Positions 2,772 through 53,871 of a DNA stretch of 64,000 nt are shown in pieces. Within the stretch, counting starts at the first letter, position 1. Each line of letters starts with the position of its first letter. The DNA comes from Psammoneis japonica (taxonomy: Eukaryota), in NCBI GenBank assembly GCA_008632985.1, contig QPGO01000039.1, positions 248,001 through 312,000 on the forward strand, given 5' to 3'. The translations under genes were made by a program, and so were the position numbers. The notes beneath the pieces are model-generated. The model had not been told where the DNA came from. It did not search any database and saw only the letters and a program-made list of their open reading frames with translations.

Positions 2772-4870
2772 TCAACCCGACCCGAACCCCGAACGCATCC
2801 ATCGTGTCAACACCTCCTCATGGTGCTTGTTGTTGTTGTTGTGCTTTCTCTTCCTCTTCTTCCCGTACCAATTACAGACCTCCCAAGCCGGGAGTGGTTG
2901 TTGTGATAAGTGAGCGCCGTTCACTTCACCATCAGAAATTTCCGGGTTACTATACGTAGGTTCTACCTCACTTTTTGTACAGGCCCAACAGAATCTCTCG
3001 GAGACGCTTTGTCCGTCACCGCCGGAACCCGAAAGAAGGCGTAAGGAGAGAGGAGCCGCCTCGCTCTCTTCTTTTCCAGCAGTGCACTGTTGCACATCTT
3101 TGGCGCATTGCAAAAGCAGAGTGTGCAGCTGGCTGATCAAGCTGCTTTGCAGCCTTTTTCTCCTTTGTCAACTGGCAAAATGTCAAAAACTTTTTTGTCA
3201 TTGGCAGCATGGGTTTGCCCCCCAGGTGAGAAATTTTCAAACAACTCGTGAGATTTTCTGCGCGTGTCTGAGCACATGACCAGCACCAAATCTGTGCAAG
3301 AAAATTTGAGCTCCAAAACAAGGATTGTTTTCATGTGTTGCATCACAAAGCAGTGTGCTTGCCAAAAATGGCACTGTGCTGTGGCTCTCACCCATTGTCT
3401 GACAAGCTGTCGTCGTGACCAAGAGAAAAGGTGAGAGCATGCCAAGGCGGGTGAACGAGACTTGCTCTGCATGACAACTTTGTCAAAATTTTGAGCTTTG
3501 CTGTTGGTTGTGTCTTGTGCAGAGGTTTTTCACTTGTGGCATTTTTGACATCTCTTTGTCTGGTGGGGCTTTCTGCAAAATTTGTTGGCTTGGTTTTGAC
3601 TTGGTGCTGGTGTCTGCAACAAGAGCAGCGCAAGTTTTCTCGTGATGTCTCAGCACGGCTCTCATGTTGCATTGTTGGCACTTTGCACATCATTGTGGGC
3701 AACACTTTTGCCTTCACAGAGAGTCACTCAAACATGTCAAAATTTTTGGCGCCAGCAAAAGAGTGATTTTTTTTGCTCAGTTTTGAGGGCACAAGGCAAC
3801 CAAGAAGCTGCCAGACAGCTGCAACAGGTGTGACATTGCAAAGCACAACAATGAGATCAGCAACATGAAACATGGGTGCACAAGCAAAATTGGAGTTGAC
3901 CATTTCATCTTTGATGGGCATCCAGCTCCACTTAGAAGCCCCGCTTGCAAGTCTTGCAAGGGGTCCAAAACATCTGAGTGGTGTGACCATGTGTGTCAGA
4001 AACAGCTGGGGTCATTTTTGCAAATGAGCACAGCTCTTTTTTGTTCTTTGGCTTGGCAATCTGATCAACTTTTGTCTCAGCCTTACATCCAAAAGGCAAA
4101 ATGTGAACTTGTTTGGCACTTGCTTTGAGTCTCCCCGCCACATCTCAGATCTCATCTTGAGAATTTCATCAGCCAGTTTCTCAAAATGTTGTTTGAATGA
4201 CCTCTTTGTGATTGTTGGTGGGTTGTCTGTGTGCACGCACACAAAAGCCAAATCTTGGAACAGGTGTGTCTCATGCTTTCCCTGCAGAAAGTTTGAAGTG
4301 CACAGCCCAGCTCCCAGGATGACGTGTTGAGCCTCACATGTGGCAGCAACCCATGTTTGGTGTTTGGATCAAGCAAGGTTGCCCACTGAAGACCAGCACA
4401 TCCTGAGTCCTTGCAGAGTCTGTGGCAGCAATGCAGGAAAAAAGTTTGTGCAACTCTTCAAGCTTGGGACTGATGACACCTTTGCAGATGTTTTTGACCA
4501 CCAGTGTTTGCGTGAGAGCTGCACAATTGATCCTTTTTGCAGATTCAATGAGATGTCATTTGTTGTTTTCTGATGTGAAGGGACAATTTTAGCTCATCAG
4601 AACCACTCGACAGCACCGGGCTCAAGCTTGACAACATTCCGCTGCATGAACCCACAAAACGATGATGCCAATTTCTCGATTCAAAGAAAGCATTGCTTGC
4701 AGCTCAGCCGAAGCATGGACAAGTTTATGGGAGTTCATGAGCACTCACACAAGTGGCAAAAAAAAAAGAAAACAGTGAAAGTTTGTGCGGCCTGTCATTT
4801 TCTGACACAAGCGGCGACCTCATCAAGGCAAACTGCTTTTGCTGTAATTTTGTAGAAGTTTGTTACCTTG
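2772..4870 (-). pseudogene. Hypermutated, fragmented paralog of the gene at window start (block A)
   Basis: 4416-4867 is homologous to 42-489. Frames are broken and TA/CG are depleted from ~3080. Confidence 0.6.
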
Positions 4871-5049
4871 TACTTTCCCCTTCTCCCAGCGACTTGCGAC
4901 AATTGCATCCGTCGCGGGAGCTACTCAGATGCCAATAATCAGACACGAGAGACTATTCTCAGAGAATGACAACGCCACCAGAACATAAGAGACGCACATC
5001 GGAGCTAGCAAAATGAGAAGATTCTAAAACATTAATTTTTATGAATGAA

Positions 5050-8046: not shown

Positions 8047-10439
8047 TTATATACAACAGAACTTCTTTCGCAGCAGAGCAGGAAAAGCGAGACGTAAGCA
8101 AGGGAAGGGTGAAGGAGCAACAACAAGAAGTAGTTCAACCGACAAAGCGCCACGTCTCTTGTGACGGAAAAACTGAAGGGGTCTTGCGAACTTCTTTCGA
8201 ATTTAGTAGAAATGACTCCTTTCTAAGTACGATAAACAGGTCATTTATTGGATTCTTGAATGTAACAAAAGACATACTGTATGTACAGTAGTCTAAAAAG
8301 TACAGTATGAATGAAAATGACCCTCCACGTCAGCTTCTTTTACTTATGCTCTACTACGTCATAAACTGTTTGTGATGCTCACCCTGCGGCGGTGCTAGAG
8401 AGCTATCGCGCAAAAGGGACACGTGTGACGTCCAGCCCCGCCCTGCCGTGTCTCGCGTGCATCATGATGTGCCCATGTGGTTGTCAGAAAGGAGAGAAGT
8501 GAACAAACATGTTGCACCTGGCATAGTTCGCCTTCTCCAAGTGTTCTTTGTACACAAAGACTTGAGACTTGCTCTCATTTGGGGACCAGCCAGCAACAAC
8601 CTGCTCACAGCACAAAAACCCCCAATCTTCTTTGCTCTCCCTGCCGGCTCTTCCCACTCTTGCTCACTCAGCCAGCTTTTTCGTGGCTTGTTTTGTTGGG
8701 GCAACAATGCTGGCAAAAAGTCATCCAATGCCCCACTCTTTCTCACAAAAACAGTTTGAGGCCATTGGCCTCATGACTGTGCCTCTTGAAGCCAACAACC
8801 CCATGTGGAAAGCTGCAAAGCAAAGAACAAGAACGAGGAGGGCACATTGCCAGCACAAAAAGGCTGTGTGCACCAAGGCTGCGCTTCTTGTCTTCATGGC
8901 TTTGTTTTGCAAAATTTACAAAGATCAATGACCACAGACACAAGACACAAGAGAGCTCATTTTGTGATGCTAGCTTGCATCAGAAACAAGCACCACAAAA
9001 GCTGTCTGGTGTGTGCACTGGCCTTTCTTTGAGGAGCAAATGGGGCAAAAGCAAAAAAAAAAAAGAAAGCCACATGGGGGAGCAGAAGACAAAGCTGCAG
9101 AAAGCTGCAGAAAGCTGCACTCAAGATCATTTGGGGCAAACAATGTGCAACAAACACAGTCAACTCCTTGCCTTTGCTGTTCTCAGCACGCGCTGCACGG
9201 GGGCCAGCATCCAGAAGAGGCTGGCAGGGGGAAGTGCCTGGGGAGAGCTTGGGGCCAACACAAGCAACAGACAACAGCTGAGACTCTTGGTTTGGGAGTG
9301 GAGTTTGGCAGTGCAGATGGTTTGAAGAGGCAAGCTGTTTGCTCCTCTTGAGGTGCCCCCCTTCTTCTTGGCATTGGGGCGCACTTAAATCTGGCTGCAT
9401 TTCAGGTGGTTCTTCCCCACCAAATCATGGCCCTGAAGTTTCCAATGCAAAACACTGGCAAGAAAGAGAAAGTCAACAGGAATGAGGCAAAAGACAAAAC
9501 AGCATGAGTTGCAAAGAAACTGTGTGGGTGACAAATTTGCAAGCAGAGGCCTGCCGCCATGGCATGGAAAAGGAAGAAGGAAAAGCTGATGAAAGCAATT
9601 GAAATCTGCTGGTGATGGGGTCACCATTTGCACTTTAAGAAAATTTCAAGCTGTGCTGAGTGCAGAGTCTTTTGGCTGCAGCCCTGTGATGGAGAATTTC
9701 AAGAGCTGTGGCTGTGCACCAAGCACTGTGTCACAAGGGTGATTTGCTGATGTTGCTCTGCACTCCAGTGGGGCCTTGTCACACTGCATCTTCCACAACA
9801 TGGGAAGAACAGAAAGCTTGTTGACAACTGGGGCAAGAAAGACAAATGTGGGTCAAGATGCAGCAGAGCAGTTGACACTGTGCACACAGCAATCCACTGC
9901 ACCCCACTCCCAACTGGAAGGTCTGTCAGTTGTTTGGAAAGAGGAGAAGAGAACAAGCCACCCTGTGCCCACCCTGCTCCCAACTGGGAGGTCTGTTGGT
10001 TGCATGGAAAGAGAAAGAGAAGCCTGGGCCCATCAGATCACAGAGAGCCACTTGCCTGAGGCACAAGCCATTGCAGCTGCAATGGGCTCAGAGCATCCTG
10101 TGCTGGTCGTTGTGGCACGTTGTTGCCTTTGACCTTGTGAACAGCTGATCCCCACAATTTCTTGTGCAAAACAAGCCTTTTTGAAAATGATGCACTGTGG
10201 CGGCAATCTTTTTGTCAAGCTGTGCACTGATGAAAAAGCAGTGCGTCATGGCATGGCTGTGCTCTTGAGAGTCTCATTGCCCACACAACACCATCATCAT
10301 GCAAAGTCATTTCTAGAATTTGGACGCCAACAATGGACGAGTCATCCCAGGAATTTTGGTCTTGTGTGCTGTGTGGCATCACTTCATGGTTTGAAGCTGT
10401 TTCTAGAATGCAATCAAAATGCAGACATGATTGGGAAGA

Positions 10440-12950
10440 GGTCAAAAGGAAGTTGTCTCATGGTGTGCAGCTGTTGGGTGCATTGAGGAACGGCTCATGA
10501 TGCTTGTCAAAAATCATTGCTTCAATTGTTGCAACATCCGTGGTGCCCCAGCAGTTTTCCCTTGCATCCATTGCCGCACCATTGCAACCCGATGGAAGCA
10601 TGACCGCAAGTTTTCCCGTGTTGAGAAAGGAATTTCCCAAACAACAGTCGTGGCACCACCTGGAGTGCTCCAATTTGTCACCCACATGTCTTTGTGTTCA
10701 GGCAAGCTCAAGCCTCACGAGCGACTCTTGAGTCGATTCCATCAAATGCACACATCTGCATCTGCATGGCCAACCAAAAAGCCAGCTGCAGCCATTGGCA
10801 AAGATGTTGTGCTCAATGCAAACATCCCATTTGGAGCACCAGATGCAAGAGCATTCAGAGAGATTGGACAACACTGAGTTGCAAAACAAAAAGCAGGCAG
10901 GTCCTGAATTGCCAGCAGCCGGCCAGAAGGCTCATCCATTGGTGATTGCACAGAGCTGCAAATCAACAAAGGTGGTGGAAGGAGCACTGGCTGACAAGAA
11001 AAAGGAAGAATGTCCTTGACCGTCAAAGGTGATTGGCTGGGTGTCCGTTCTGTGTGCCTTGACTGTGCCATGCACCAGAAACATCTCATCCCACTCGTCC
11101 ATGCCCGCGCCAAATGCTTGTGCTCCAGGCTTGATCGTCAGTGTCACTCCTTGCAGGATCTGCACTTTTTGTGTCAAATGATGTGGACTTTTGCTCAAAG
11201 GCCAGACTGTGTCAGAGGAGAGAATGTCGCCCACAACCAGTGCAGGAGTCATTGGCCGCATCGTCGGACCAGACGTCATGCCATCCATCAACAACCCAGG
11301 AACCTTTCTGTCTGGCTGCACCAGGAAAGGCTCAAACAGGACGCAGCCAGCTGTGTGGCTGTGTCATCATTTTTGTCCCAAATCTTGGAGTGAACAGTTG
11401 ATGCATTCATGGTGCCCCAGCAGTTTTGCCGTGCATCCACTGCCACCCCTTCACAACCCAATGGAAGTGCAACAGCAAGTTTTCCCATGTCAAGAAAGGA
11501 ATTTCCCAAAACAACAGTCGCGGCACCATCCGGAGCATTCCAATTCATTGTGCACATGTCTTTGTGTTCAGCCAAGCCTCAAGAGCAACTCTTGAATCGA
11601 CTCCATTGAATGTGTGTGCCTGCATCTGCATGGCCAACCAACAAACCAGCTGCGTTGGCAAAGATGTTGCATGCACTCAATGTCAATGTCCCATTTGGGA
11701 TGCCAGATGTGAGAGCATTTGGAGAGATTGGACAATGCTGAGTTGCAAAGAAAAAAGCAGCCAGAAGGCTCGTCCGTTGGTGATTGCACAGTGCTGCAGG
11801 TCAACAAAGGTGGTGGAAGGAGCACTGGCTGATGAGAAAAAGGATGAAAGCCCTTGGCCATCAAAGGTGATTGGCCAGGCTTCCGTTCTGTGTGCCTTGA
11901 CTGTGCCATGCACCAAAAACAACTCACCATGGTTGTCCAGCTTGGTGCCAAGTGCTTGCACTCCAGGCTTGATTGTCAGTGTCACTCCTTGTGGGATCTG
12001 AGCTTTCTGCAACAGACAACATAGACTTTTGCTCACAGCCCACATTGTGTCTGACAAAATCACACCACCTGCTGTTGTTCCTTGTTGAGGTGGTGCAGGC
12101 TCTGGTGCAGGATGCACCAATGAAGGTCCGGGTGCAGCCTTTGTTGGTTGAGGAGTCGGCGGCATTGTTGTTGGAGAAGGAGTCAGTTCAGGAGTTGGAG
12201 GCATTGTTGTCAGAGAAGGAGTTGCTTGTGGAGTTGGTTGCACTGTTGTTGGAGAAGGAGTCGGTTCAGGCATTGGCGGCATTGTCATCAGAGAAGGAGT
12301 TGCTTCTGGGCTTGGCTGCGTTGTTGTCAGAGAAGGAGTTGCTTCTGGAGTTGGCTCAAGAGTCATCTTGCCAACAGAAGACAGAACTGTTGGCTGCATT
12401 GTTGCCAAAACAGGAGTCGCTTCTGGTGTTGGGGGCAGAGATGTTTGTCCTGTGGAGAGCAGTTTGGTTTGTCGGTTTGTCTGTTGTTGCAGCTGGGACA
12501 GAAGTGCTCAGGGCAAGATTTGGCTCATCTGTTGGCGCATTTGAGGTGCCAGGACAGTCAGAGATGAGGTGCCAGGCTCCTCTGTTGCACCTTCAAATCA
12601 ACCGGATCAATTGGGGGAGAAGTTGACCCAGAGCTGTTGGCAGGTGCCAGACAAAAACTCTCCATTGCCACTTTGGAAGAGCAGAGCACCAATGACAGTG
12701 CCCAAAAGCAGGAAAGTTCCAGTGCCAGTGGCAAAGGCAATCCACTTCCATTTCCCACATTTGCGTTGTTCCAGAGATTTGTCTTCCCCAGGTGGTGTCA
12801 TCTCAACTGCCTCAGCTTCTTGCACCAATTGGGCAGTGACTTGAATGTCTGTGCTTTCTTGAATTGGAGCATTGTCTGGTCATTGTTGGGTTGTGAACAC
12901 TGTAAAATCCCCTTTGCCGTCAAGTCCACCATCCCAACAAGCACCAGGGC
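10440..12950 (-). pseudogene. Decayed membrane-anchored surface protein: TM segment, Pro/Thr repeats, two tandem beta-helix-associated domains
   Basis: TM WIAFATGTGTFLLLGTVIGALLF and a PTPSPT repeat tract. Two copies of ILSDTxW..SKS....QK.QI.QGVTLTIKPG...FLVHGTVKAH.T...PITFDG. Many frameshifts and stops. Confidence 0.65.
12161..12360. repeat. 39-bp (13-codon) tandem repeat encoding Pro/Thr-rich linker, ~5 units
   Basis: Units such as ggcattgttgttggagaaggagtcagttcaggagttgga and ggcattgttgtcagagaaggagttgcttgtggagttggt. Confidence 0.8.
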
Positions 12951-14711
12951 ACTGCTCTTTCTCCTCCATTGCACTCAGAGACACAGGTTGATGAGTTGGT
13001 CATGGGTTCTCAATGCTGCAGTTTGTGTGGCTTGCTTCTTGGTGGCAAGAAGTCCATTTCTTCTTGTGTTTTGCAACCTTTTCCTTTTCAAGAGAGCTGC
13101 TGGCATTTGCTTCCAAATCGGGAAACACAGATGCAAAATCGCCGTGATCAGGGTCACTTGGGCAAAATGTGTCACGATCAAACTTTTCATGGCTCCGTTT
13201 CATGTGGCTGCGTGAAGATCGGTGCACTTCCTTCTTGTGGTGATGATGGTCATGTCTCTCCTCTTTCTTCACAGATGGCAACCTTGATTGTGGAACAGGC
13301 TGAAATTGCTGCCAATGACACTGGACTTGGCGCTAAGACACGTGCAAATGATGGATCGTTCATGTGGGCACCGGGTGCACAGGGCACTTGCAGTTCAGAC
13401 GATCCTGGCCAAAGCAAGCAGTGCACAGGCGGTCTCCACACTGCACTGCACAGCATGAGCAGCCACCTGGTGTTTGGTCCTTCTTCACAGAGACAAGATT
13501 TGAAGATGAAGATGAAAGGGAGGAGAGAGCCTCTCTTGCACCTGGCAAAAAAAGTGTCTCTTTCAACTGCTCTTTGCACAGTCTTGTTTGGCACATGTGC
13601 CACACCAGCTTGCAAAAAAAAAAAGTGTGCAGAGGCCAGCAAAGAGCAGCTCCTTGTGTGCAGAATTCCACAGGCCCATGCCATGCATGACCCAACCTGG
13701 GACTGGAGTGTGTCTGTTTCCCCCCAAAGCCCTTCACTTTTTTGAGATGGCTTTGTCGTGGCGCAACGTGCTTGATTGAGCACATCAAGCTTGTTTCTTT
13801 CTGGCAAAAAGACATTGTGAGGCTGGTGGTGGCCTCAGAGGTGCCTTCATCTCCAGGTTAGTCCTCATGCCCCATGCTGCATTGTGAGACATCAGAGCTT
13901 TTTTTGTCATGGTGTGCCACATGATTTGCTCTGACATTTCTGTGTGCTCTCTTCTGCAGTTTTTCACCATCTTCCTTGTTTTCTTGCATTGGGGCAAAGG
14001 CTTTTGGTGCCTCAAACCTGCCAGAGAACAAAAGCACCCAGGCAAACTGGAAATGATGTGCTTTGGGTGAGGAGGAGACATCTGCACATTTGAAAAATCA
14101 TCTCTTTTTTTCTGCTGGTGATCGGTGATCACCCACGCCAGCATGGCTGTCTCAAGGAGCAGCTTTGCTGCAGAGCCTGTGTGCAGCAGAGTTCTGTGTC
14201 ACTGATGCCACATGCAGTGCAGGGCTGGTGCATCCTCTGTGCAGCAGCAGTGTGCACCCACACCAGTGGCCAGTGGCTGGCAGCTCACAGAGTCAGTCAG
14301 TCCAAGAGCACACAACAAGAGTGTGCAGCATTCGTGCCAAGGCTGTGCTGCTCATGGCTTTTCTCTTGCCAAATTGCTGCCTTGATTCTTTCATGCTGGC
14401 TGGCAGCAGGGGGGCAAGGAAGAAGGTTGTGTGTTCATTTTGGGAGCATCAGCACATGAGAGTTCCAGATGGCACAAGATGAAGCTGCCTCTCTGGGGGG
14501 GCTCCTGCTGGCACTGGGCTCAAGGCCACAAAACAACCATGGTTGTCACTTTCTCACTTTTCCAGCATTGTTGGAACAGGAACATTGATCACTGTGACTA
14601 GATCACACTCCAAGACTCCTGTGCATTCTGACACCAAGTCACGTTTTTGTGGTTGGTCACACGGAAAAATTCAAGTCAGAAGCACAAAAAACATGCCAGA
14701 GCCTGTGCCAC

Positions 14712-14872
14712 CAGTGGCGTAGAATGGTTCAGGGTGTGCACAAATTTTGCACCACAGTGGCGCATGTGATTTTTATGCAAGTTTCCACATGCGCCCAGTG
14801 GCGTAGACCCAGTGCAAAAGCAACAAATTTTTGAAGTTTTGTGGCGTACAAAGTCAGTGTGTTGTGGCGTAG
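14712..14872 (+). repeat. Array of five (CA)GTGGCGTA motifs, probable transposon subterminal repeats
   Basis: GTGGCG starts at 14714, 14757, 14798, 14841 and 14864. Confidence 0.55.
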
Positions 14873-16291
14873 ATTCGACATCAACAAGGCTTTGCGCAAC
14901 ACTCGCAACAACCAAGACACGCTCGCAAAATCTCGCTCCCACTTTTTCACACGTTGCAGCTGATGTGGTGTTGTTCATTCGTCTCACTCGTTTTCTCATC
15001 GTGGAACCTCCTGATGACACAGGGTGTCTTTCAGGCATGTGCATCGGTCTGATTGCCCCCCCTCTTTGGGCAAGAATGGGGTGTGTGGTTTGCTTCTTGA
15101 AGACACCAGACCAGCCACAAGGAGCTTGCAGTGGAGAGCTGGCAAGCAAAGCACTGGGCTGCGCCACAAGGCACTGGCTGATGGGACAGCATTGGGCAAG
15201 CACAACCACAAGCATTTTCCTGAGGGCACTTTGCACCACATGTGACAAAGCCAGAAACACGGACTGAAAAACACAGACAGAGCCAGGTTTTGCTCAACTG
15301 GCCACCCAGAATTCAAGCAGGGAGGGTGCAGCCGGAATGAAGAAGGCTGCAGGTCAATTTGAGGTCCCAGTGGGAACTTGCTTTGCATGTTTGTTGACAG
15401 CCTGCTGCAGAAGCCATGGCTGCACTGGAAATCCACAAAGGTGGCAGTGCGTGATGGGGTGGATCTCGCAAATTCTCTCAAGATTTTGTGATGCATGAGG
15501 CCAAAATTTGGGCGCAGCATCCACAGATGCTTTGGGAGAGATGCTGTGAATTTGTCAAGGCAGGCACTTCTGAAAGCATGGGTGGGGAAGGCCAGTGCTT
15601 GCTGCCAGGGATCTTTGTGAAAATCTTTTGAAGAGGATGACACTGCGTCTTCTTGATTGGAAACTTCAGAGAATTGTTTGAACACAGTGGGGCCAAACCC
15701 GCCAAAGTGTGCATTGAATTTTGGAGAACAAAGAAGACACAGATCCGCAGCAGTGGTGGCCACAAAGCTGGCAGGGCAAGGCTTGGAAAACAGGCTGCCC
15801 AAAAAGCCATGATGGGCTGGCAGCAAAACACTCCTCACAAAAGGTGCCACACAACTCCACAGTTCTCCAGCGTGCTGTGGGAGCTTTGCTGTCAAGCATG
15901 TAAAACCACAGCACCTCAAGTCACAGACAAGCTGCTTTGCAGGCAGAAGCCCAGCCAAGGGCCGCAAGTTGACAGCCCTGCAACATCTTCCCTTTTTCTC
16001 CTTTTTCCTTCTTTTCCTCTCTCTCTTCTCCTTTTTCTCCTTTTCAGTTTATTCTTCTGGGCCGCCTCCGGCGGCCACCTCTTTCATTCTTCCCACATGC
16101 CGAAATCTCGTCACAGGTGGGATCCCAGGACGCCAAGCAAATCGGACGGCGGCACTTGTTGGAACGCACATTCGATCCGCGCGATTGGCCCCTGCGCGGC
16201 GGCTTGCATGAAGAATCGATCATCAGCGGTCCCAGATTTTTCGACACACGATGGGGTGGATACCTAGTAGAAAGGGACTCTAAGAAGAAAA

Positions 16292-19039: not shown

Positions 19040-20000
19040 TCCCATTCACTTCCAACTGCGACGATGTCCAAGAATTGTAAATGCCCAACTGCATGGACAA
19101 GCTCTTGAGGGTTGAATTCATCCAATGTCGGCATTGAAGCATTGTTGCACAATGCCATCCAGAAAAGGTGGTGCTGAGTGTCCACCAGCAAGCAGCAGCC
19201 AACAACAAGTGTTCGGTCGGAGGTTTTGGCTCGCCAATTTCTGTGCTGGTTTGTCAGTGGCAGAGTCAAAAACCAAGGGCTTGAGGACCAAGCTCATCCA
19301 ATTTTTGAGCTGTGTGCAGCATGAAGAAGGGTGCTTGAGAGTGCTGCAATGGCAAGGGCTTGGAGGGTCAAACCCACCCAAGGCCCCAGTTGATGATCTC
19401 TGGCCATGGCATCAAAAAGAAACTGGAAGATGTCATTTGAACCCATCCATTTTTTGTTGGCTGATGTCAAAAAGCAGTTGGTGCAGCACCCAACAGCAGG
19501 AAGCACCTGTGCTGCACCTGTGGGTGCAAGGTGTTGGGGGCGGAACTTGCCCCATTTTGTTGAAGCCACATCGTCAAAAAGAGACAGCAATGGATGGCGT
19601 CCTGTTTTTGCAAACAACTGCAGGTCACTCAAAACAACAGAAAGACAAATGTCCAGCAGTGGCAAGAAAGACCCAAACAACATTGGCAGTTTTTGGGCAC
19701 ACCAAGTGACCCATTGTTGGAGCCAGTGTGCCACAGATCAGCACACCAAAAACTCTTTAAGTGTGCACCTCAGCTTTGCAAAAGCCTGCACAGTCTCTTT
19801 GGTGCATTTGCCAGAGCAGCAAGGAGACATTGCACTTTGCTCTGATGATGATCCACTGAGCTCCTCCACACTGTCCCAAACATCTGGTCCAAAATCCATC
19901 CTTCCAACATTTGTCAACCTTGCAAAGCTGTTTGCAACTGAGCCTGGCTGCTGTGGTGGAAAAATGCCTGCAACTTGTGCAGGATGTTGCAGCAATTTTG
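19040..20000 (-). pseudogene. Decayed helical-repeat (RAP-domain/OPR-like) protein gene in hypermutated block C
   Basis: Recurrent F-x-P-Q-x-L motifs across broken frames: KFRPQHLA, LDEFGPQAL, LDEFNPQEL; LFD..A motifs precede some of them. Confidence 0.45.
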
Positions 20001-20389
20001 TTGCGCCATTGTTGCTTTTTTGCTGCTTGGTGAGTTCACATTGCAGTGATCTGATGTGCCCAACAAAGCATGGTGTGTCCTTTGGGCTCATTTTGTTGCC
20101 ACAGCTGTCACACATGGCAAACACTTCATTTGCTCTGTCGGCAGTGCAAAAATTGGTTGGCCTCCAGCAGTGGGGTTGTTGTTGGTGTGATGTCATGTGT
20201 TGGCAAGCTCCTGTCTCATGGACCAGAGGATTGCTTTTAATGATGAGCATTTGGCTGCGAATGATCCATCTGCGTTTGATGCAAACCTGACAATCATGGT
20301 GTGTGCTAACACAAAAGACTGCAGAGCCTTCATCCTGCAGTTTGCACATGCTCTGCATGCCCTTCTTCATGAAGAAGAGACATTCAATG

Positions 20390-36900: not shown

Positions 36901-37648
36901 ACACCACCCCTTTTGCCACCTTTGCCTCTGCCTTGTTTGCCTTTCACCATTGCAGTGGCATTGGTTTGTCCAACACTTAAAAGAAAGAACCGCACAGGTC
37001 GATGCAGCAGTGCTTCACTTTTTTAGAAAATGTGGCGCTCAAATGAAGCCAACATGTTGTTCACACAAACACACTGACACACACAATTTTTCCCGCCAAA
37101 ATTTTTTATCATGAAACGAACATCATGTGATCACTGTCAAATTTGCGCACCTCATTTCTTTGATCGGTGAGGAACCGAAATGGTGGAACACTTTTGAGGT
37201 GCTGAACACGATTTGATTTGAATGCATTCTACAGACATGTCGGCGTGCATTGGGGGGGTCATCCCCGCGTTTGTCCTAAAATTGCCGTTGCATTTGAACA
37301 AGGTTTTTTGCAGTGCTTGTTTTTGAATGCAAGAATCATTCATGGTCACACCCGATCGTGCACGAAAACGAGAACCATCAGCACCGCGATCGAAGCACGA
37401 CGATGATGACAATCATCGACATTTCTCAAAAACGCAGTTTGCCGTCTACCAACTTTTCATGCACGCACAATCTTTGACACACAACAAACATAAAACAAAT
37501 GAGAGTTGGCAGACGGACCACCTCCGTCACAGACTTATGGCTTGTTGTTTTCACCACGGTGAAGCACGGTGAAATTCAGGAAAAATCATGCAAAACACGA
37601 GCTGTTCGGCCGAATTCGAGCTAAAAAAAGCAGCAACCGACCACCCTC

Positions 37649-38257
37649 AAGGATGGATCATCTAGATGAGGTATTTTTTTAATTAGCTCGTGATTTTGCA
37701 ATTTCCCCGTGCTTCGCCCGTGTCATTTTGCGATGCCTCTGAGCACCCCCAAACACTTGTGACTGTGTCCAGCCCCCATCAGGGCTGTTAGATCCACATG
37801 TGGGCTACACACCTCAACCTTCAAATGCCAATTGTCGGATTCGGTGCAGTTGTCACATGCGACAAACCGCTGTTTTTCGCCAAAATCGCACTGTTTGTGG
37901 GAGACAAGCCACAACTTTCCAGGAAAAGCCGACAATTGGCGTTTGACTGGCCACTGACATATCTACAGTCGTCAAGCTAAAGATCGCGCATGGTCACAAC
38001 CATGGCCAACACATTCTATGATGTCTTTCGAAGGGACAAAGTTCGACCTATCGCTGAAAATATTTTGTTGGCGAGCGCGCGCATCCAGTACGAAAAATCC
38101 GGGTTTTTTCCAAAAAAATACGAGCTCGCGCGTAAACAGACCTCATCTCGACGATCCATCCTTAAAACAGGTCCGGGGGTCAAAAACTCCGATGTGCGCG
38201 ACCCTCAAGTGTTCCAGTTTCAAAGTCATCGAAAATATCCAAAAACACGGTACTGTA
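37649..38257. repeat. Nested inverted repeats, probable transposon terminus or MITE
   Basis: 37649-37672 vs 38140-38163 (22/24 inverted match). 37822-37841 vs 37926-37945 (18/20). Confidence 0.55.
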
Positions 38258-38652: not shown

Positions 38653-40432
38653 ATGAGAGCGCACGTCACACTGAACCTGTTCCTCTCGTCATCAATGGCT
38701 TTGTTCTCTGTTGTGGCCGCCACAACAGCGCATAAGCAGACTGGTGCTAACAACATGTGCGACGACAGCAAGTGTCGCAGCCCCGGCTTTTCGTCTGGAA
38801 CCGACTGCTGGGCTTCAATCGAGGGAGCCGTAATATGGAAACTGCCCTCATGTATAGACGACTATGAAGTGAAAGACCTTTCAAGCCTGGCCTCCTTCTA
38901 CGATGCCCCGTCAAACATCACGTACGGATGGTATACGTGTTGTCCTCCAGAACACAGTGAACCTCTTCCTCAGAAAGAGTGTACCGATCAAGTATGTACG
39001 AGTCCCAATGGCCGAGGGGGGACGGATTGCTGGGCAGATGCCCCCCATGAACCCATGACGTGTGGAGGTGGCGAGTACCGCTTTCCCAGACACACCACCG
39101 CTATGTCCCGACACTACTCTCGTCGGTATTATAATTATGTGTGCTGCAAGACAGACAATGGAACTCCGCCACTCCGGAGGCAGCTTTACACAGGAGAGGC
39201 AATGAGGGTGTTTCTCGGATGCCTGGCCTTATGTTTCACTCTTGTTCTCATCTTTGCTATCCTATGCTCTCGCAAAGCGCGAAGAAACCCGTTCAATCTC
39301 TACCTTGTTGCCTTAACAATTCCAGATGCCAGTCACTCTGCCTTAGCCATTGTATTAGGATCAGGGGCCATCAGCGGAAACCTAGTATCATCCAACGCTA
39401 TGATATTCATAACCTACTTCTACAATGCAGCAAACATTTGGTTAAACTCGGTGGTGGCATTTCAATTGTACCGGATTCTCCGCGAGACAAAATTTGCAAG
39501 ACGAGTTGCCCCACCCTCCATCATGCGTGTGTGGACGGAAACAGCAATTGTCTATTCCTTTGCGATCGCTGTAGGGGTTGGCTCTGTTTTCATCTTTGAA
39601 CGTCTGCAGTTTCGCGAAGACTTTCAGAAGATCCTCGGGGTTCTGTGGGTTGTTATTGCTCTTGTCCCCTTTCTATACGTTGGGTACATCTGTGTCCGTA
39701 TTTGGATGGGCAATTTGCTCTCAATTTCTCGACGGACAAGAGTATTGGCACTCTACTTTTTGAGAATCATCCTTGTATATTATCTTTTCTTTCTTCCCTG
39801 CGCCATTTTGCAGGTTGTCGAAGCAGGAAATGTTGATTGGGACGGGCTACCTTTGACTTACTTCCATTGGTACGTTGTTTGTAAATGGCGGAACTGCTGC
39901 AATCTCAGTTTCACAGATTTCATCCATCGTTTCATGTCACGTGTTCTTCAGGTACATATCTTGTTTGCAGTCAGTTGCGTCAGTGTCAATGGCTCTAACG
40001 AAACCTGAAGTGCTCGCTGCGACGAAGAAGTTGCTATTCTGCCGCTTTGCGGGCGACAAAAGCAATGATGCGAATGGAGATACTCCGAGCTATGCTATGG
40101 ATTGTTTTTCTCGATCCGACTCTTTAGAGCGGATGACAGTCGTGAGTAGACTTTCCAGTATTCTTGTTGTCGGGGCGATATATCGAAAGAACTCCTCCCT
40201 GAGTGATGTAGAACAAGGCATTTATGATCAGAAGGCCGTAGACAAAAATGACACATCTGCTGGTGGTGGCCAGAAAGAAGAAGAAGAGGAAGAAGCGCCA
40301 TGTTGTGAACTTGCTTCCGAAGAGTCGCTTCAGGAGAACGAACTGGATAAAGGCAATCACGCAATTTCTGAAGGTAGCAGGCACGGAAAGCAAGTGGCCC
40401 CTCTCCACTTACATCAACAACCACCGCAATAA
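38653..40432 (+). CDS. 7TM GPCR-like receptor with signal peptide and duplicated Cys-rich ectodomain; intron 39870-39951
   Basis: RKARRNPFNLYLVALTIPD, ANIWLNSVVA, RVLALYFLRII, ALTKPEV; seven hydrophobic segments. Confidence 0.8.
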
Positions 40433-40739: not shown

Positions 40740-43500
40740 CCCTCTTTGGGGTATGGACAACAGCCTTACCACAGGCTATTTGAGCAACTTGGCAATCAAT
40801 TCATTGGCTAGAGAAACCACCCTTTCCGAGTGCTTGTCCCACACGTGGCTTTTTGGTCTCCGGATCTTCAATTTTCAATTGGTCCTTGGACCACGGGTTG
40901 CCATCGGCATGAAGAGGCAGGCTCCTTGCAACGCAGCTTCTGCATTGAAATCGGGATCCAAGGAAGCCCGCAATGCAGCCAGAGCCCCCTGACTGGGAGA
41001 AAACTGAAAGATGCAGAAGCCACATCAGCAAATCATTCCCATCATGCCCAAAGATGCGCCAAAATCACTGGCAATGCTTCCTGGTTGTTGTGAGGTAAAG
41101 TTGATGAATGGCTCCTTTCTGGCCAAATGATGCACAGCCACCACATCACCAAGCTTGGCCCATCCACAATTGAGGACCAAGTCCAGAGGGTGCCACTGGC
41201 ACAGCTGCCGTTGTCACATCAAATTTAAGGGCCCCTTTGGATGCACCTCCTTTGGTGGGCTTGTTGAGTGGTTGCTGGGGGTCAAAGTCCAAGAACAAAC
41301 AGTGTCCAAAAGAAGCCACAAAGATGCAGAGGGGCTTGCATGTGGAGGTTGCAGCAGCCTTCAAAGGAGCCAAAAAGTTTTGCCCAACACTTGCCTCTGC
41401 ACCTTGTTTGGTGACCCAACAGTCAGGAACACTGGCCCCAGCATTGTTGGCTTCAGCTTGCATGGCAACCAACACTGCAGATGTCAAGTCGTCAAGATTG
41501 CACTTTGCATGACAGAGCTTGGGTTTGGGCAGACCACGTTTTGTGGCTTCAGCTCAAGCAGATTCTTTGGCCTTTCCAAGCTTTGCGGTGTTCTTGAAAA
41601 CAAGGTCTCACAGCATGTCTTGGCGTTTGGTGCCTTTCTGGCACTTTGTAGCCAAAAGCAGAGCTGTGTGCTGTGCAAAAAGGCATGGTTTTTGTCTTTG
41701 TGGCGTGGCTTCATCAAGGGGCACGTCATGGTTTCCAGCAAATCATGCTGGTGTCCACAAGTGAGAAAGAGCAATGCAAGTAAGAAAAAGCAATCAACAG
41801 CAAGCAACAGCGCCCTCACGACTAAAACACAAACAACTTTTATGAATGAATGTTCTGTTGGCAAAATGTTCTTCGCCAAACAAGACTGGGTGCAATGGAT
41901 GACCGTTAAGACGACAATGCCAATGACTTGAATTTCCTTTAAATTTGTGTGAATGCACATGTCCTGGAGAGACGGACGCACGTGACCGTTGGTTGGTGGA
42001 AAAAGCCAAGTCATGGAGACCTCGGTTGTCCAGGGACTTGCCAAGATCGCAATTCATCACCCTCAGACTGCCTGCGCTGGTCTGCAGAAGTCCCCACAAC
42101 ACCAGTGGCAGCATGTCCAATGTGCAGCAAAGGACTGCAATGAATTGTTTGCGGACACAGAACGCACGACACAGCGCAATTTTCTGCCGGCACTGACAGG
42201 CAAGACCTTGGCCGACGACGACCCGAGACCAGCCCCATCTGCCCTCCCAATCATGTTTTTGGGACTGTCCATCCCTCGTCCAACTGAGTCCACAGCTCAC
42301 AACTGTGAAGGAAGTGCTCTCGCGTGCTCCCACGTGATCGACTCACTCCATGGCCGCTCCCAGTTCTCTCCTCCGCAGTCCACAAGGACACCACGCGAAA
42401 AGTGAAACAGGAAGCACCTGACAGAAAAGTCAAAGCACATGGGGAGACCCTCAAAACAGTCCTCAGGACCCTGCCTGACCTTCAGGCCAGAGCTGTCAAG
42501 CGCAGCACCAAGACTGGAGCGTGGCTGTCAGTGTGCCCTTTGTCGCTGAACAGCGTAGAACTCTCATGCCAAGAGCTCTGAGGCGCACTCTGTCTGTGGT
42601 GTGGTGGTGCTCCACCCAACGTCCCGGAGTGCTGTGATGGATGTGGATGCAAATTCTTCATGAGTTGCGCCCTTCAGTGCAAGAAGGGCAGCCCAGTCAT
42701 CTCACGACATGACGAAGCACCTGACAACCCAGAGGTGGCCCAATGGGCAAGGCTTGCAAACCTTCCTGCGTGTGCGATGAACCCCTGATCAACCCCACTG
42801 GTTGCAGCACAGGAAGCTCAAGCACCCCAACAGTTCCCCAGGAAACACCACCTCCAACAAGCCCAAGGATGGCGATCGTGGAGACCTTCTTGGCATGAGA
42901 TTTTGGGACAGAAGGACAGACATGGTGACAGATGTTCGCATCCCCAACACGGACGTGTGAAGTCACACCTGTCTAAAACACCAGAAGAAGTCCTGGCAAG
43001 CCACAAATGTGAAAAAAGTGCAAGCACCTTCAACCAGGTCTTGGAACAATGCCGCCACTTCGCACCATTCGTTGCATCATGCGATGGACTTTTTGGCAAA
43101 GAAGCCAAGGCGATGCTCCGCAAGACAGCATCGAAACTTTTCGACAAGTGGCAAAAGCCATGTTCCGAAGCATGCAGCTACATCAATGCAAGGATGAGCA
43201 TCACCACAGTCAGGGCAACCCACCGTTGCCTCAGGGGGTCCCGCATTCCCGCCTCTCAGATCAGCTCTCCAGGCGACCTCAGTGGGAAGATGGCGCAGGT
43301 CTGTCCCTTTGCAGACACTGAACGACCCTGATGCAATCAAACCCCACCTGTCCAGACCATTTGCCTGCCGACAGTCCACAGAGATCACTGACACCATGCC
43401 CAGAAGACAACAAAAACCCATCATCATGCTGAACACGGCGCCAGATTCAGCTCAAAATTCATGCGCACTGCCTGCGAAATTGCACGCGTCAACCACCCCT
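40740..43500. other. Hypermutated block E
   Basis: TA strongly depleted. Left half is an unidentified decayed sequence; right half is a non-LTR relic. Confidence 0.85.
41930..43330 (+). mobile_element. 5'-truncated CRE-like non-LTR retrotransposon (thumb, zinc knuckle, restriction-like endonuclease), decayed
   Basis: GLQKSPQHQWQHVQ, FLPAL, GLSIPRPT, GAWLSV.P, CDGCG..F...ALQCKKG..VISRHDE, RGDLL...FW......DVRI, FAPFVASCDGLFGKEA, ARMSI..VRATHRCLRGSR. Confidence 0.85.
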
Positions 43501-43911
43501 CACTCGTACGGACTGCATTGACCATCACATGACATCCATTTGTTCTCTTCGAGGACGGTGCTTGTAGGAATTTGCACTGAAACCAGCATGTCAATCAGTG
43601 CGATTGGGGCATTCGGAATCGGAAGAATTATGAGAACGCTGGACAGACGCTACGTCTTTTTCATCCGTACGGTACGGCCGTTGATTTGAAATTGTACTGA
43701 CAAACACCGTACAGTACCGGCACCCCAAACGCACAGACTGACAGAATTTATTCGAACAGCGCTGTACTTGCTGTACGGTACAGTATGTTGTGCTGTCCTG
43801 ACACGTCGCTCCCCCGCCGTCCCCCAAACATGCGCAACCTTGCTTGCAACGCCGCCGGTGAATAGGCAGGATCTTATTTTGTTGCCTTCGCACTGTCTGA
43901 GCTTCAGCAGC

Positions 43912-44314
43912 ATGTCTACCACTGACGACACCACCACCACCAACAACAACACTCCATCTGTGGAAACAACAACGACGACAGAAAAACCAGTGTCAACATG
44001 GAAATTGCCCGATGGAATTGAAGATCATATTGAAGCTGGTCTGTTTCTTATTTGCGGCTGAGAAAGATTTTCCTAGTAAAATCTTTTGTGTGGATGAAAT
44101 AAAATCTCACTTATGTTTTGCTCTCTATTTTGTCTTTTGTTCAGGACTCATCAAATCGGCTGCGGGTATTGTGGTGGGTGGTTTGGTTGGAACACTCTTT
44201 TTCAAATCCGGCAAGGGATGGAGAGCTGCTGGTGCCGCCACGGGATTGGGTGTCGCTCTTGGATCCACCTTGGAACGAGCGCTAGTTGCGGATAATGAAA
44301 AGCAACAGAAATAA
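43912..44314 (+). CDS. MIC10: MICOS complex subunit Mic10; intron 44039-44144
   Basis: Small two-TM protein with Gly motifs GIVVGGLVGTLFFKSGKGWRAAGAATGLGVALG. Confidence 0.75.
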
Positions 44315-49978: not shown

Positions 49979-52900
49979 CTAGCATGGCCAGCAATGCCAC
50001 GGCTCTCGCACGAGCGGCATTGCCAGTTCTTTAGGCTGCGCGAGAGTCAGTCACGCATTTGTCTTCTTTTCTTGTTTGAGCCAAGCACCAGCTCTCCAGC
50101 TGCATGGTGGCAGTTCTTGTAACTAGATCTATCCCGTTCTGAAACAGATTCATCATCAAGTGGCATGCATGCCCTTCACAGGAAGATAAAAAAGCTGTGT
50201 TTCTGTTCATGGGAAGAGTGTGTGAATCTAAGAAAACAGCACCATGTCGTTTCTTGGCAGAAAAAGAAACTTCTGCGTCGCTCCATTCACGAGTCAAGTC
50301 ACGAAGGCTTGAACTGAAAATGGCAGCACTCCACTTCATTTGCTGTCAAATGACATCCATGGTGCAAGTTTGTCATTGGAAACCCCCAAATCTTTTTAAA
50401 ATCAAGAGTCAGATCATGATCAGTGGAACGAGTGGGAATTTGATTTCCATTCTCATCCAAAACTTGTTGCAGAAGATGTGCGTTGGGTGCCCCAATTGTG
50501 TCCGCAGCCAAGGTGTGGCTGGGGAGATGGGTAATTTGCCCTGGCTGCACCTGTTGGAGGCTTCCCCACTGGTGGCACAGGGCAGTTGTGGATGCATGCG
50601 GCAGTGCACAACTCCCAAATGACCGTGCTTGTGCAAAGGACACCTGGTTTCTGAGTGAAGTGGCTCCACATTGCCACAACAAAGCAGTGGCAACAAGGGG
50701 TCATTTCACCCCACCCAGAGCAGGATGGCCAGACCTCTTGAAAACCTTGATCCAAGAATGCAGCCAGCATCTGGCTGTGGTGCACATTCATCAAGTTGTG
50801 GCACAAGTTCCTTGGGTCCTCGGTTTTCACACATTTCCAGCTCTGCAATGAAGCTTGTTTGCAGTTGCTTGGGTCTTGTCTCTTGTGCTGGATGCATTTG
50901 CCAAAAGTGCATCTGGTGCAACAAGTGTTGGGGGATGAGTCTGGACAGCTGCCATTCGAACAACAGTGCACAATGCATGGGATTTGCACTGGAACAGTCT
51001 GTCAATCAGTGCAGTTGGGGCATTTGGACAAATCATGCGATGTTGGACAGACTCTGCCTCTTTTCCATCCATTGAAATTGCACTGTCAAATGCCCCAAAT
51101 GCACAGATGAACAGAATTTGTTCAAATGCAACAGCTGTCCAGGCACGTCCCCCAGTGTGCTGGGCAGAAGAGCTTTTTTGCCCATGTCATCAGCATCCCA
51201 ACTGGATGGTTGACGTCCCTGAGCCCCGTGCTGCGCTCCAAAATTCCCCATGCAATGCAACAGCCAATCAAGGGCAGCACATCCATGGGAAACTTTGTCA
51301 GATGCATGCTTGACAATCAGCAAATTGTTCATTTTTGTCATGGCGTGCCACAGCTTTGGCGCTTTTCTGCTCTGCTGCAATTGGGGTGAAGCAAGCACAC
51401 AATTGCGAGAGAGCACATTCTTGCAATTCCTCAAAATGAGAACAAATGGAAAAGCATTGTCATCATTGCCATCATCATGACAACGCTTGACAAATTCTTC
51501 TGCCGCCTTGCAGAGTTGATGTTGGCTCTCATCGTTCCAGGCTGGCAGGCATTTTGTGCTGCACCTGGCGTCATGCTTTGGGCACCATGGCACTCTAATT
51601 CTGCTTTCAAGGCAGCTTCTCAAAAGCAAAATGACACCTTGGATGGTGATTCTTCCACACAGCTTTTGCTCCCTTTTGGCGTCATCTGGGTGCAATGGCG
51701 CTGCTTGTCCTCCGTGGACCATCGCGCAATCATGGCACCACCCCCAGTTTCAGTCCTTTGTGTCCTCTGCCGCTTGGAGGGTGCAACCTCAGATGAATCC
51801 ACCGATGAGAGAGAAGACAGACATTGAAAAAAAGCACATGCCAGGGAATGATGAATGAATGAATGCAATCGACTGCCGCTTCTGGATGTGGATGAGAGAC
51901 AATGCACTGTGGTTGTTGTGCATGGGTTGCTGATGTCATTGATGCCTGGCTGGCTAGAGAGAGAGAGAGAGCAGCTGCTGCAGAGCTCCAGAGCTGCAAC
52001 AGCTCCACCTCTGTGGCAGGCGAGAATGTGGTGATGTCCTGGAGCAACCCTTTGTTTCCACATGCTCGAGTCACAGACCACCAGGTGACTTCCATTCGTG
52101 CTCAAGCAAAGAGCATTGACGCGGGATTTGTTGCGTTTCTTGTTTCAAGATCCTGCCATTGGAATTTCATCATTTTCTGGCACCACTCAGTTCAACACAG
52201 CTGCTGGGAGATGCTGCATGCACTGCAAAAGGCAGAGTCCTTGTCCTCAGCAGAAGCAGACACCTGAAGGTCCAGAGAAGACTGCGTCAAAGCCTCGCCA
52301 GGTGGGAGCAAGCATTTTCGAAGCATTTTTAGAATGTCCAGGATGGACAGTTGTCTGAATTCTTGTTCTGTCAACCCCTGAACACAGTTGTCTGTTTCAT
52401 CATTGTTCACTCTGCCAATGTGAGAAATGAGAAGTGGATCCTGCCTTGCTGCAGCTTTCAATGTCACGACAGGCGAGTGCATGTGTCTTTCCATTTCCCA
52501 TCTGGGTGCCTCCTCTCCAAATGAGTTCCATTCAATGGAACGTTTCCCTGCAACTGGTTGAGAGACAACAACCAGTCAGAGCATGTTCTTTGTTGGGAGC
52601 AAGGGCGGTGGCGAAGACACACTGGTGTTTTGCAAATGTGACTTGAGGGTTGTTGTGAAAGCTTCATCCATTTCATCTCCGGTTCTGCCCACATGTTCAT
52701 CAAGGATCAAGAATGTTTTTTGTCTGCTGGGGCTGGACAATGCCTCAATGAGACATGTCAACCAACCATTTGGAGGATTTGTGGCATCCACACCCAGCAG
52801 CTGGTGCAGCATCGACATGACATGAGGCGCCCCTTTCCCCGTGCGACAAATTGCGATCCCTCGAACTTGCTCTTTGTTCTCATGCAAGAAGAATTTCGCT

Positions 52901-53871
52901 GCTGTCATCTTTCCCATTGAGGCTGGCACCATTGCCACTGACACAGCCCCAGCGTCATCACAATTTTCCAATGATTTTGTTGTTGGAGTGAGGGCGCATT
53001 TCGCGCGCTGAAGAGACGGAGTAAATCCCAAAACTGTGTTGCTGTCAATCATTTGCTTGAAGGCTTGTGCTTGCAGGAATCTTGGCTTGAGAGAGCTCCA
53101 CTCGCTTGTGGATTCCAGCACCATTTTGCAAGCAGAAAGCATTGCGATGGCAGCCACAAGCTCTTGATCCACCATGGTGAACAGCAGGCTGCACAATTTT
53201 TTTCGCAAAAAGGCGGTTTGATTTCATCGCTAAAACTAAAACAAATGCAAAGAAGTGGTGGCATCACAAGAATTCCAGATTCCTTCTTCGAAATTTTTTT
53301 GGCGGGGTGGAACAAGTTTGACGTCAAGAAGCTCGGTCTCAGCTGGAAGCTCATCAAGCACAGGAAGAGACACCTTGATGGATTCCGTACTGATGAGATG
53401 TGCAGATTCCTCATCAAGCTAAATTTCTCACATCAAGGAGCTGAAGCATTGCAAGCAACCAGGGGTTGCAGCCACCCAACTTTTTGAGCTCACATTCACG
53501 GATGAGCCCCACATTCACAACACACACATGTCAGATCATTCACATGTGAAGGACAGAAAGCATCTTATCATCCTGCATGCAATCACCTGCAAACAAAGAC
53601 AAAGGCACCAATGCCCAGACACAAACTCTTGTGCTTGTGTAAAATGCCTCGGAATGTGGTGCTTGCCATCTCGGTCGAAACTTCATAAGTTCACGGCACA
53701 TGTCAAAGAGAGAGGTCGCATTGCCAAGCCGAATCGCTTGAGCAGCGTTTTGGTGTAGTTTGGCGAAAGGTAAAAAGGCTTGCCATGGTGACGCGGTGGT
53801 GAAAAACTCTCGAACCTGGTCTCTTGCTAGCACCCATTCGGTTTACAAGGGGCTGCTGTTGTAGGATTAGA
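49979..53871 (-). mobile_element. Hypermutated block F; candidate non-autonomous Helitron-like element carrying gene fragments
   Basis: On the minus strand: hairpin (49991-50023), 8 nt, then CTAG|T at the block edge. Candidate 5' end A|TCTAATCC at 53871. The hypermutated state is secure; the Helitron call is tentative. Confidence 0.45.
52400..53210 (-). pseudogene. Decayed P-loop NTPase-like gene
   Basis: Degenerate Walker A (VPASMGKMTA) and Walker B (FLILDE). No Tyr in 210 aa. Confidence 0.5.

Follow-up and report, generated by a model that had tools for sequence, protein, structure and literature searches.

Composition of the six blocks

A stretch of 64,000 nucleotides from the diatom Psammoneis japonica (assembly GCA_008632985.1, contig QPGO01000039.1, positions 248,001 to 312,000) is referred to here as the window, and its positions are counted from its first letter. 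Between its long, intron-poor genes lie six discrete blocks from which the dinucleotide TpA has almost disappeared (Table 1). One block contains what appears to be the relic of a transposase gene, another a decayed gene of a surface-protein type. The comparisons described below point to a mutator that has acted within this genome, on TpA, leaving TpG or CpA in its place.

Table 1. Coordinates and properties of the blocks, repeat copies and gene relics in the window (o/e, observed/expected ratio).
Feature	Position	Strand	Length	Composition	Remarks
Block 1	3043-4590		1548 bp	2 TA, 19 CG, 183 TG, 162 CA	CpG-poor
Block 2	8552-16050		7499 bp	17 TA	Largest block; tandem copies and decayed relic of surface-protein-type gene inside
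Block 3	19079-20666		1588 bp	3 TA	
Block 4	31209-36978		5770 bp	17 TA	Houses the putative transposase relic
Block 5	40810-43507		2698 bp	11 TA; TG 239 vs CA 306	
Block 6	50150-53231		3082 bp	8 TA	
Transition zone	36400-37900			Low TpA, normal CpG	TA in other genomic copies opposite TG/CA here
Putative DDE-fold transposase relic	32945-34333	+	462-aa open frame		In block 4; family common in diatoms
Unmutated sister copy	42-489			TpA o/e 0.62, CpG o/e 1.04 (its 500-bp interval)	Ordinary DNA
Block-edge copy	4416-4867				Edge of block 1; 73% identical to 42-489; polarises the changes
Tandem pair	10495-11216 / 11364-12054				In block 2; 552 of 686 aligned bases identical
Tyr-free open reading frame	11683-12507	-	274 aa		Homology of the C-terminal ~110 aa to a domain from large extracellular proteins

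The window as a whole has a G+C content of 48% and a TpA observed/expected ratio of 0.39, the deficit being concentrated in the six blocks. When the ratio was scanned in 500-bp intervals, low values were found at ~3.0-4.5, 8.5-16.0, 19.0-20.5, 31.0-37.5, 41.0-43.5 and 50.0-53.5 kb, where it lies at 0.00-0.19 except in four intervals at the edges (0.27 at 4501, 0.51 at 20501, 0.34 at 37501 and 0.36 at 53501). Outside the blocks it is mostly 0.4-0.85, and the non-block DNA taken together has a mild deficit (0.56). The boundaries between the two kinds of DNA are sharp at a resolution of 200 bp. Summed over their 22,185 bp, the blocks contain 58 TA, where ~859 would be expected from the outside frequency of 38.7 per 1000 in the remaining 41,815 bp. 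The longest runs free of TA are 10404-12022 (1618 bp), 50532-51596, 34318-35368, 14870-15901 and 33294-34318.

A preliminary description of the window, made from its letters alone, had claimed six almost TpA-free blocks set between genes that use TA normally, and the counts bear out both statements. The TA-free runs that it named are exact, with TA at 10404, 12022 and 12903, and again at 33294 and 34318, and none between. Its picture of TpA loss thus stands; what it understated is the depletion of CpG in the same blocks. TpA is the most strongly depleted dinucleotide there (observed/expected 0.04), followed by CpG (0.33), which falls from 53.8 per 1000 dinucleotides outside to 20.0 within. Over the same comparison, TpG and CpA together rise from 147.8 to 216.0 per 1000. 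The losses of TA (36.1) and CG (33.8) sum to 69.9 per 1000 and match the gain of 68.2, so that the total of pyrimidine-purine steps is equal in blocks (238.6 per 1000) and outside (240.4). This equality implies that what separates the blocks from ordinary DNA is transitions, which preserve the pattern of purines and pyrimidines. G+C content is 0.495 in the blocks and 0.474 outside, and on the forward strand the numbers of TG and CA are similar in five of the six blocks, the exception being block 5.

Long open frames abound in the blocks because TGA is the sole stop codon left to them; 177 open reading frames (ORFs) of at least 75 codons are spread across the six, including one of 350 codons without a homolog. 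A lone AT-rich interval at 63001-63500, beside a coproporphyrinogen oxidase gene, has the opposite composition to that of the blocks (G+C 0.39, TpA observed/expected 0.98, CpG observed/expected 0.49).

The preliminary description had made its proposal depend on support for the assembled bases in the raw reads, and such support comes from contigs built from k-mers of sequencing run X1 (depth ~60). These agree with the assembly without a single difference over 30541-32223 and 34521-35007, and with two differences each over 36059-36546 and 40851-42108. Over the region 28-44 kb, 2050 X1 contigs are at least 90% alike to the window, from which they differ by 221 transitions and 41 transversions; the rows of differences examined individually were 40 of 274. 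Of the 12 differences listed in 37284-37757 plus 40832, 10 are sites at which the TA of other copies is TG or CA in the window. At position 37604, A accounts for 5176 of a summed depth of 7395, and at 33192-33193 the window reads TG and another copy CA. Parts of blocks 4 and 5 show an elevated summed contig depth, although depth is not equal to copy number.

Loss of TpA and decay of CpG coincide at the scale of whole blocks, and at 36.4-37.6 kb the DNA is TpA-poor with normal CpG. The two processes are therefore separable, and the one acting on TpA looks the faster. Within the blocks, local retention of TpA and of CpG is uncorrelated (rho 0.05, 104 intervals), which gives no sign of a shared target at a fine scale.

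Direction of change and contents of the window

Few internal repeats were found on comparing the window with itself, and of six pairs two are informative. The first joins the ordinary DNA near the start of the window to the edge of block 1. Opposite the TA dinucleotides of 42-489, the copy at 4416-4867 has TG six times, CA four times, TA four times and something else four times, while the opposite arrangement, TA at the block edge facing TG or CA in the sister copy, occurs once. The CG dinucleotides of 42-489 face TG nine times, CA three times and CG seven times, again with one reverse case. Changes of A:T to G:C affect 11 of 36 TpA targets compared with 17 of 195 other NpA (Fisher p=0.001), and changes of C:G to T:A affect 13 of 45 CpG targets compared with 17 of 151 others (p=0.008).

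The second informative pair consists of the tandem copies in block 2, both of which are free of TA. Between them there are 96 transitions and 38 transversions, and 50 of the transitions make up 25 double differences in which CA in one copy faces TG in the other, 14 in one orientation and 11 in the other. Among 35 adjacent double transitions, these 25 are the ones on pyrimidine-purine steps, which provide one quarter of the opportunities (binomial p=1e-8). Such doubles show that one copy turned an ancestral TA (or CG) into TG while its partner independently turned it into CA. The changes therefore post-date the duplication, occurred in this genome and struck either strand.

The putative transposase relic of block 4 preserves a record of the change in its protein sequence. 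Its frame has 170 homologs at E<=0.001 (best E=1.4e-99, 42% identity), those with names coming from Fragilaria crotonensis, Thalassiosira sp. and Nitzschia inconspicua. Not one of its 462 residues is Tyr, whereas Tyr makes up 3.86% of the homologs. All seven conserved Tyr columns, defined as those with Tyr in at least 70% of homologs, are replaced, five by Cys (TGY) and two by His (CAY). By comparison, across the 51 columns with conserved Lys, Glu, Asp, Gln, His or Asn, the second position of the codon went from A to G once (p=3e-8 against seven of seven for Tyr). Four of seven conserved Arg residues are His (CAY), the result of CpG decay. The changes of TA to TG and to CA in the repeat pair, and of TAY to TGY and to CAY in the relic, are A>G and T>C transitions respectively. 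The preliminary description had held that A>G rates at TA no higher than those in other NA contexts would count against it; in both comparisons they are higher. Taken together, these results show a change of A:T to G:C specific to TpA, made on both strands, in place, after duplication or insertion, with neighbouring genes spared.

The identity of the relic was approached through its predicted structure. A model built with 39 homologs (mean predicted local distance difference test score, pLDDT, 79) has as its best structural matches in VIA-align the integrase of simian immunodeficiency virus (Z 9.9), Metnase (9.3), Mos1 (8.7) and Sleeping Beauty (7.8), against a background for best matches of Z 7-8, and the top rows are cores of DDE transposases and integrases. 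No Pfam domain was found in the frame itself or in the 170 homologs, the profile of the family had no match among PDB sequences at E<=1, and Foldseek of the model against the PDB gave none at E<=0.001. We therefore call the frame a relic of a DDE-fold transposase and give it no superfamily label. The family, which lacks a Pfam model, is large, has multiple copies in Fragilaria crotonensis and was scanned for with the conserved motifs FLFDHS[CSQ]GH and H[CAP]ExAGEG[IV]E. A perfect 30-bp tandem duplication lies within the relic at 33566-33625; as it contains no TA to lose, it is either younger than the hypermutation or was left untouched by it. No convincing terminal repeats were found for block 4.

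Relatives of the relic indicate that the TA-free state is not intrinsic to this family of elements. The scan confirmed 448 metagenome stretches encoding the family, and among the best 80 of them, on which composition was measured, TpA observed/expected is 0.40-0.84 throughout, so that none is TA-free. The median Tyr content of 120 homologs is 3.8%. The possibility raised at the outset, that consensus or active copies might be equally free of TA and Tyr, is thus contradicted. Five of the 80 loci (L080, L054, L077, L046 and L043) have a CpG observed/expected of 0.02-0.15 and yet a TpA observed/expected of 0.45-0.52, from which it follows that CpG decay alone is insufficient for TpA removal. In the hosts of these five the element is methylated, and the process acting on TpA is either missing or has not been applied to it.

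Among the 120 homologs listed, four from JGI or ENA assemblies (P0116, P0110, P0087 and P0120), which share 38-45% identity with the query, contain 0-1.4% Tyr. In the order given, their conserved Tyr columns read HHHC, CCHCCH, CCCYHCRC and YCCHHH, and conserved Arg is nearly all retained, with four exceptions in P0116 and P0087 together. The same signature thus occurs in other assemblies, there with little or no CpG decay.

Other contents of the blocks are less readily named. The Tyr-free ORF of block 2 ends in a domain of ~110 residues that has 363 homologs and no Pfam model; of the eight top matches scanned, four carry PKD, beta-helix, Calx-beta or NosD domains. Its single conserved Tyr column is Cys (TGT). 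The domain is tandemly repeated behind a Pro/Thr-rich linker (10495-12054) as a dead copy. This relic of a surface-protein type implies that the content of the blocks is not all of transposon type. A Pfam search of six-frame read-through translations of all six blocks at E<=0.01 identified no family; a lone HTTM match at 0.0069 was taken as chance. Searching the 150 longest of the 177 ORFs (at least 75 aa) at E<=0.1 returned sub-threshold noise only, the ORF at 14996-16048 (reverse strand) has no homolog at E<=0.001, and no viral genes were found in the window. The Copia, CRE-like and two Tc1/mariner-like relics of the preliminary description were not confirmed by these searches, and a single DDE-fold relic was recovered. 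Its claim that conserved Tyr had become Cys or His in transposable-element relics is confirmed for one relic, the frame at 32945-34333.

The further claim that the mutation is repeat-targeted goes beyond the data, as the copy at 42-489 is unmutated, a repeat-like unit at 37649-38163 keeps its TAs and block 2 includes a non-transposon relic. The unit resembles a miniature inverted-repeat transposable element (MITE), with 30-nt inverted ends that are 87% complementary and lie 455 nt apart. It retains its TAs even though it adjoins a TpA-erased block, and it stands in the zone of highest summed contig depth. Discreteness and the sparing of flanks are both present in the window, and a mobile origin can be assigned to one relic only, the other being of non-transposon type.

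The genes between the blocks encode a TPR protein, a family-C G protein-coupled receptor, a 2-oxoglutarate-Fe(II) oxygenase, an LRR protein, an EamA transporter, a sulfotransferase, a Sec63/DnaJ protein, an ABC-F protein, a CNNM/CBS protein and the coproporphyrinogen oxidase. Relatives listed for the Sec63 ORF are 63-73% identical, and all but one of those named by organism are diatoms (Attheya, Nitzschia, a Bacillariaceae metagenome-assembled genome, Thalassiosira and Cyclotella). The protein collection contains no very close relative of this diatom. Contigs of run X2 skip 30500-30622 (123 nt) and 39869-39950 (82 nt), which have GT..AG ends on the gene strand (CT..AC on the forward strand at the Sec63 gene, which lies on the reverse strand) and look like two short introns. 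Run X2 therefore looks RNA-derived, though it is recorded as 'DNA?'. None of its contigs covers 31204-37077 or 40816-44000, which is not evidence that these regions are silent.

Proposed mechanism and its rivals

It is probable that the blocks are dead mobile and pseudogene DNA of the diatom nuclear genome, mutated in place to near saturation by a DNA mutator specific for TpA. The idea of a second mutator, acting on A:T pairs, had already been put forward in the preliminary description and was right in substance, since the change is context-specific, runs from A:T to G:C in place on discrete blocks and spares their neighbours. In the mechanism proposed, a T:A pair within 5'-TpA-3' would become C:G on either strand, yielding TpG or CpA. 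A single hit would abolish the TpA, and the process would halt at that site; it would never yield CpG, would keep the pattern of purines and pyrimidines and would leave G+C about unchanged. In coding DNA, Tyr codons would become Cys or His codons and TAA and TAG stops would be lost, and ATA and TTA codons and TATA-like signals would go too. Alongside it, CpG decays to TpG or CpA at a slower pace within the same blocks, which accords with cytosine methylation of silenced transposons in diatoms.

We infer that the process is enzyme-driven, aimed at silenced chromatin and in the service of genome defence. The preferred enzyme, at about even chances, is a TadA/ADAT2-type polynucleotide adenine deaminase, which would convert adenine to hypoxanthine, a base that is read as G. 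On tRNA, such enzymes naturally act on A34 where U33 stands before it, in agreement with the 5'-T rule found here. Adenine deamination is favoured because the tRNA A34 deaminases and the ADARs already require or prefer a 5' U. As leads only, candidate enzymes include the stramenopile-only deaminase-SAM-Tudor proteins and ADAT2 paralogs. According to the available part of a survey of deaminases, the former carry SAM together with 1-22 Tudor domains as fusions, and a possible DNA-mutating activity is ascribed to LmjF36.5940-like deaminases (PMC3239186). RID-like DNMT4 genes, of unknown function, are recorded in 31 of 60 diatoms in the available part of a study of diatom DNA methylation (PMC9998398).

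The same in-place hypermutation could be achieved by attack on thymine. A TET/JBP-type oxidase would make 5-hydroxymethyluracil or 5-formyluracil at TpA, and mispairing of these bases with G would lead to T>C. As TpA is self-complementary, T>C with a 3'-A fits every result equally well, and the 5-hydroxymethyluracil of dinoflagellates prefers TpA, although a literature search yielded no paper in support of this preference. Nevertheless, thymine modification in diatoms has no indication in these data, and the 5'-U rule is already held by the tRNA and RNA adenosine deaminases. In the chlorarachniophyte alga Bigelowiella natans, where hypermutation of this kind has been described, the available text of the report proposes adenine deamination only (bioRxiv 10.64898/2026.01.13.699255). 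Attack on thymine is therefore regarded as unlikely.

Rather less probable is biased mismatch repair or gene conversion in heterochromatin, in which T:G mismatches would always be restored to C:G and TpA thereby slowly converted. The handling of T:G mismatches should indeed be busy in blocks subject to CpG decay, and an analogy is offered by very-short-patch repair in bacteria, to which the scarcity of CTAG is attributed. Known T:G glycosylases, however, work in a TpG/CpG context and not at TpA, and TpA has been lost where CpG is intact, at 36.4-37.6 kb and in the four low-Tyr homologs. The rate in B. natans, ~1000-fold over background and seen in only some lines, also fits attack by an enzyme better (bioRxiv 10.64898/2026.01.13.699255, available text).

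An artefact, in which TA in methylated regions is misread as TG or CA owing to a modified base or an error of base-calling or polishing, is very improbable. CpG decay does make the blocks look methylated, and the only runs at hand may be the source of the assembly itself. On the other hand, raw-read k-mer contigs at single-copy depth agree with the assembly, and half-modified sites would give mixed reads instead of a clean TG in one copy and CA in another. The replacement of Tyr by Cys or His recurs in the four proteins from other assemblies, and in B. natans the mutation calls come from Illumina sequencing of mutation-accumulation lines (bioRxiv 10.64898/2026.01.13.699255, available text).

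We give hardly any credence to editing of element transcripts at the RNA level, with A-to-I changes by an ADAR-like enzyme fixed through reverse transcription and reintegration. ADARs do prefer a 5' U and hyper-edit double-stranded RNA derived from repeats (cited in the available text of bioRxiv 10.64898/2026.01.13.699255), but the sole element identified is the putative relic of a DNA transposase, a non-transposon gene relic is also affected, TG and CA are balanced on each strand in five of six blocks, and tandem copies in place differ both ways. ADAR is, moreover, confined to animals in the available part of PMC3239186. No more credible is the idea that the elements arrived TA-free or that TA was selected against, since the only hint of this is the mild TpA deficit outside the blocks, whereas relatives of the element are normal in TA and Tyr, conserved Tyr of the catalytic core has been replaced and sister copies differ.

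Several considerations weigh against TpA-specific mutation in place as the explanation of the blocks. The evidence comes from one 64-kb window, and the balance of dinucleotide losses and gains presumes that the blocks started with the composition of their flanks. The polarised repeat pair likewise presumes that 42-489 is ancestral-like, and an ancestral CpG can yield the CA/TG doubles of the tandem pair as well as TpA can. If X1 and X2 are the source of the assembly, agreement with them tests the assembler and not the sequencing chemistry. Finding no TA-free locus among the best 80 metagenome stretches means either that the signature is rare or that choosing the best matches favours intact copies. 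A mobile-element gene was identified in one block only and one relic is of another kind, either the A or the T may be the base attacked because the step is self-complementary, and the process may be extinct.

Comparison with known systems

Before 2026, to our knowledge, no cellular process was known to erase TpA from selected parts of a genome. The preliminary description likewise knew of none, but precisely this change is reported by Mettrop et al., who describe hypermutation of TpA to TpG or CpA in integrated DNA of nucleocytoplasmic large DNA viruses and virophages in B. natans (bioRxiv 10.64898/2026.01.13.699255; as this and the preceding citations of the preprint, the following is limited to its available text). 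In mutation-accumulation lines, 231 of 302 nuclear mutations fell in the integrated giant-virus and virophage regions, and 230 of these 231 were A>G or T>C, all of them on TpA. The elevated rate was directly observed there, in some lines only, and the genome contains 124 clusters that are TpA-poor and rich in CpA and TpG. Reverse-transcriptase and DDE domains are over-represented among its low-TpA coding sequences, and the authors put forward an ADAT2 homolog as candidate enzyme. Apart from this preprint, literature searches on depletion or hypermutation of TpA in diatoms brought up nothing, and one on DNA adenine deamination in genome defence gave nothing usable.

The likeness between the two algae is close. 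In both, A:T to G:C change is exclusive to TpA and produces TpG as well as CpA, and in both it is confined to discrete regions whose neighbours are spared, the long-term footprint being clusters that are poor in TpA and rich in CpA and TpG. The mean TpA frequency of 0.0018 in the low-TpA coding sequences of B. natans compares with 0.0026 in the blocks described here. The differences lie in the host, a stramenopile as opposed to a rhizarian; in the extent, with saturation here over 22 kb of a 64-kb window; and in the targets, which here are relics of a putative DDE transposase and of a surface protein. CpG decay coincides with TpA loss in P. japonica, whereas the term 'CpG' occurs 0 times in the available text of the preprint. 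A de novo rate was measured in B. natans, while the evidence here is a footprint only. In B. natans the virus region is single-copy; given this, the untouched copy at 42-489 and the TAs of the MITE-like unit, 'repeat-induced' would be an unestablished label for the process. On present sequence evidence, the blocks appear to reflect the same kind of process as in B. natans, observed here for what would be the first time in a diatom; it has reached saturation and is separable from CpG decay.

Such a footprint matters because the single prior report concerns one rhizarian alga with, in its available text, no enzyme named; a diatom would add a second major lineage, and transposon and pseudogene relics would widen the range of targets beyond integrated viruses. 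It would also make the question of the enzyme tractable, through genes common to genomes with the footprint and missing from those without it. Should the reading be true, the fields of genome defence and base editing would both gain an object of interest, a DNA adenine deaminase that occurs in nature and follows a simple 5'-T rule. For annotation, the blocks conceal transposons from domain searches, and their long false ORFs could mislead gene callers.

Other known processes share some of these features. Decay by deamination of 5-methylcytosine affects the same blocks, has the same products and accounts for the changes of CGY to CAY at conserved Arg, and diatom transposons are methylated in a DNMT5a-dependent manner (PMC9998398, available part). 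Deamination of CpG to TpG or CpA cannot, however, remove TpA, as the CpG-poor metagenome loci that keep their TpA illustrate. ADAR hyper-editing and the laboratory adenine base editors derived from evolved TadA resemble the present case in converting A to I, read as G, with a preference for 5'-U or T, but they act on RNA or are engineered, whereas the record here is in genomic DNA, on both strands and regionally targeted.

A parallel in outcome is repeat-induced point mutation (RIP) of fungi, which also makes regional, saturating transitions that permanently inactivate mobile DNA and spare its neighbours. RIP proceeds from C:G to T:A (CpA to TpA in Neurospora), creating TpA and stop codons and leaving the DNA AT-rich (for some of these features, see the available part of PMC9998398). 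In P. japonica the opposite is found: TpA is destroyed, G+C is kept and TAA and TAG stops are lost, which is why the 462-codon frame stays open. We tentatively suggest, while considering it somewhat less than an even prospect, that diatoms and chlorarachniophytes share an enzyme-driven, chromatin-aimed editing of TpA, carried out by a DNA adenine deaminase or a thymine modifier, which would constitute a defence in mirror image of RIP and may be old in the group of stramenopiles, alveolates and Rhizaria.

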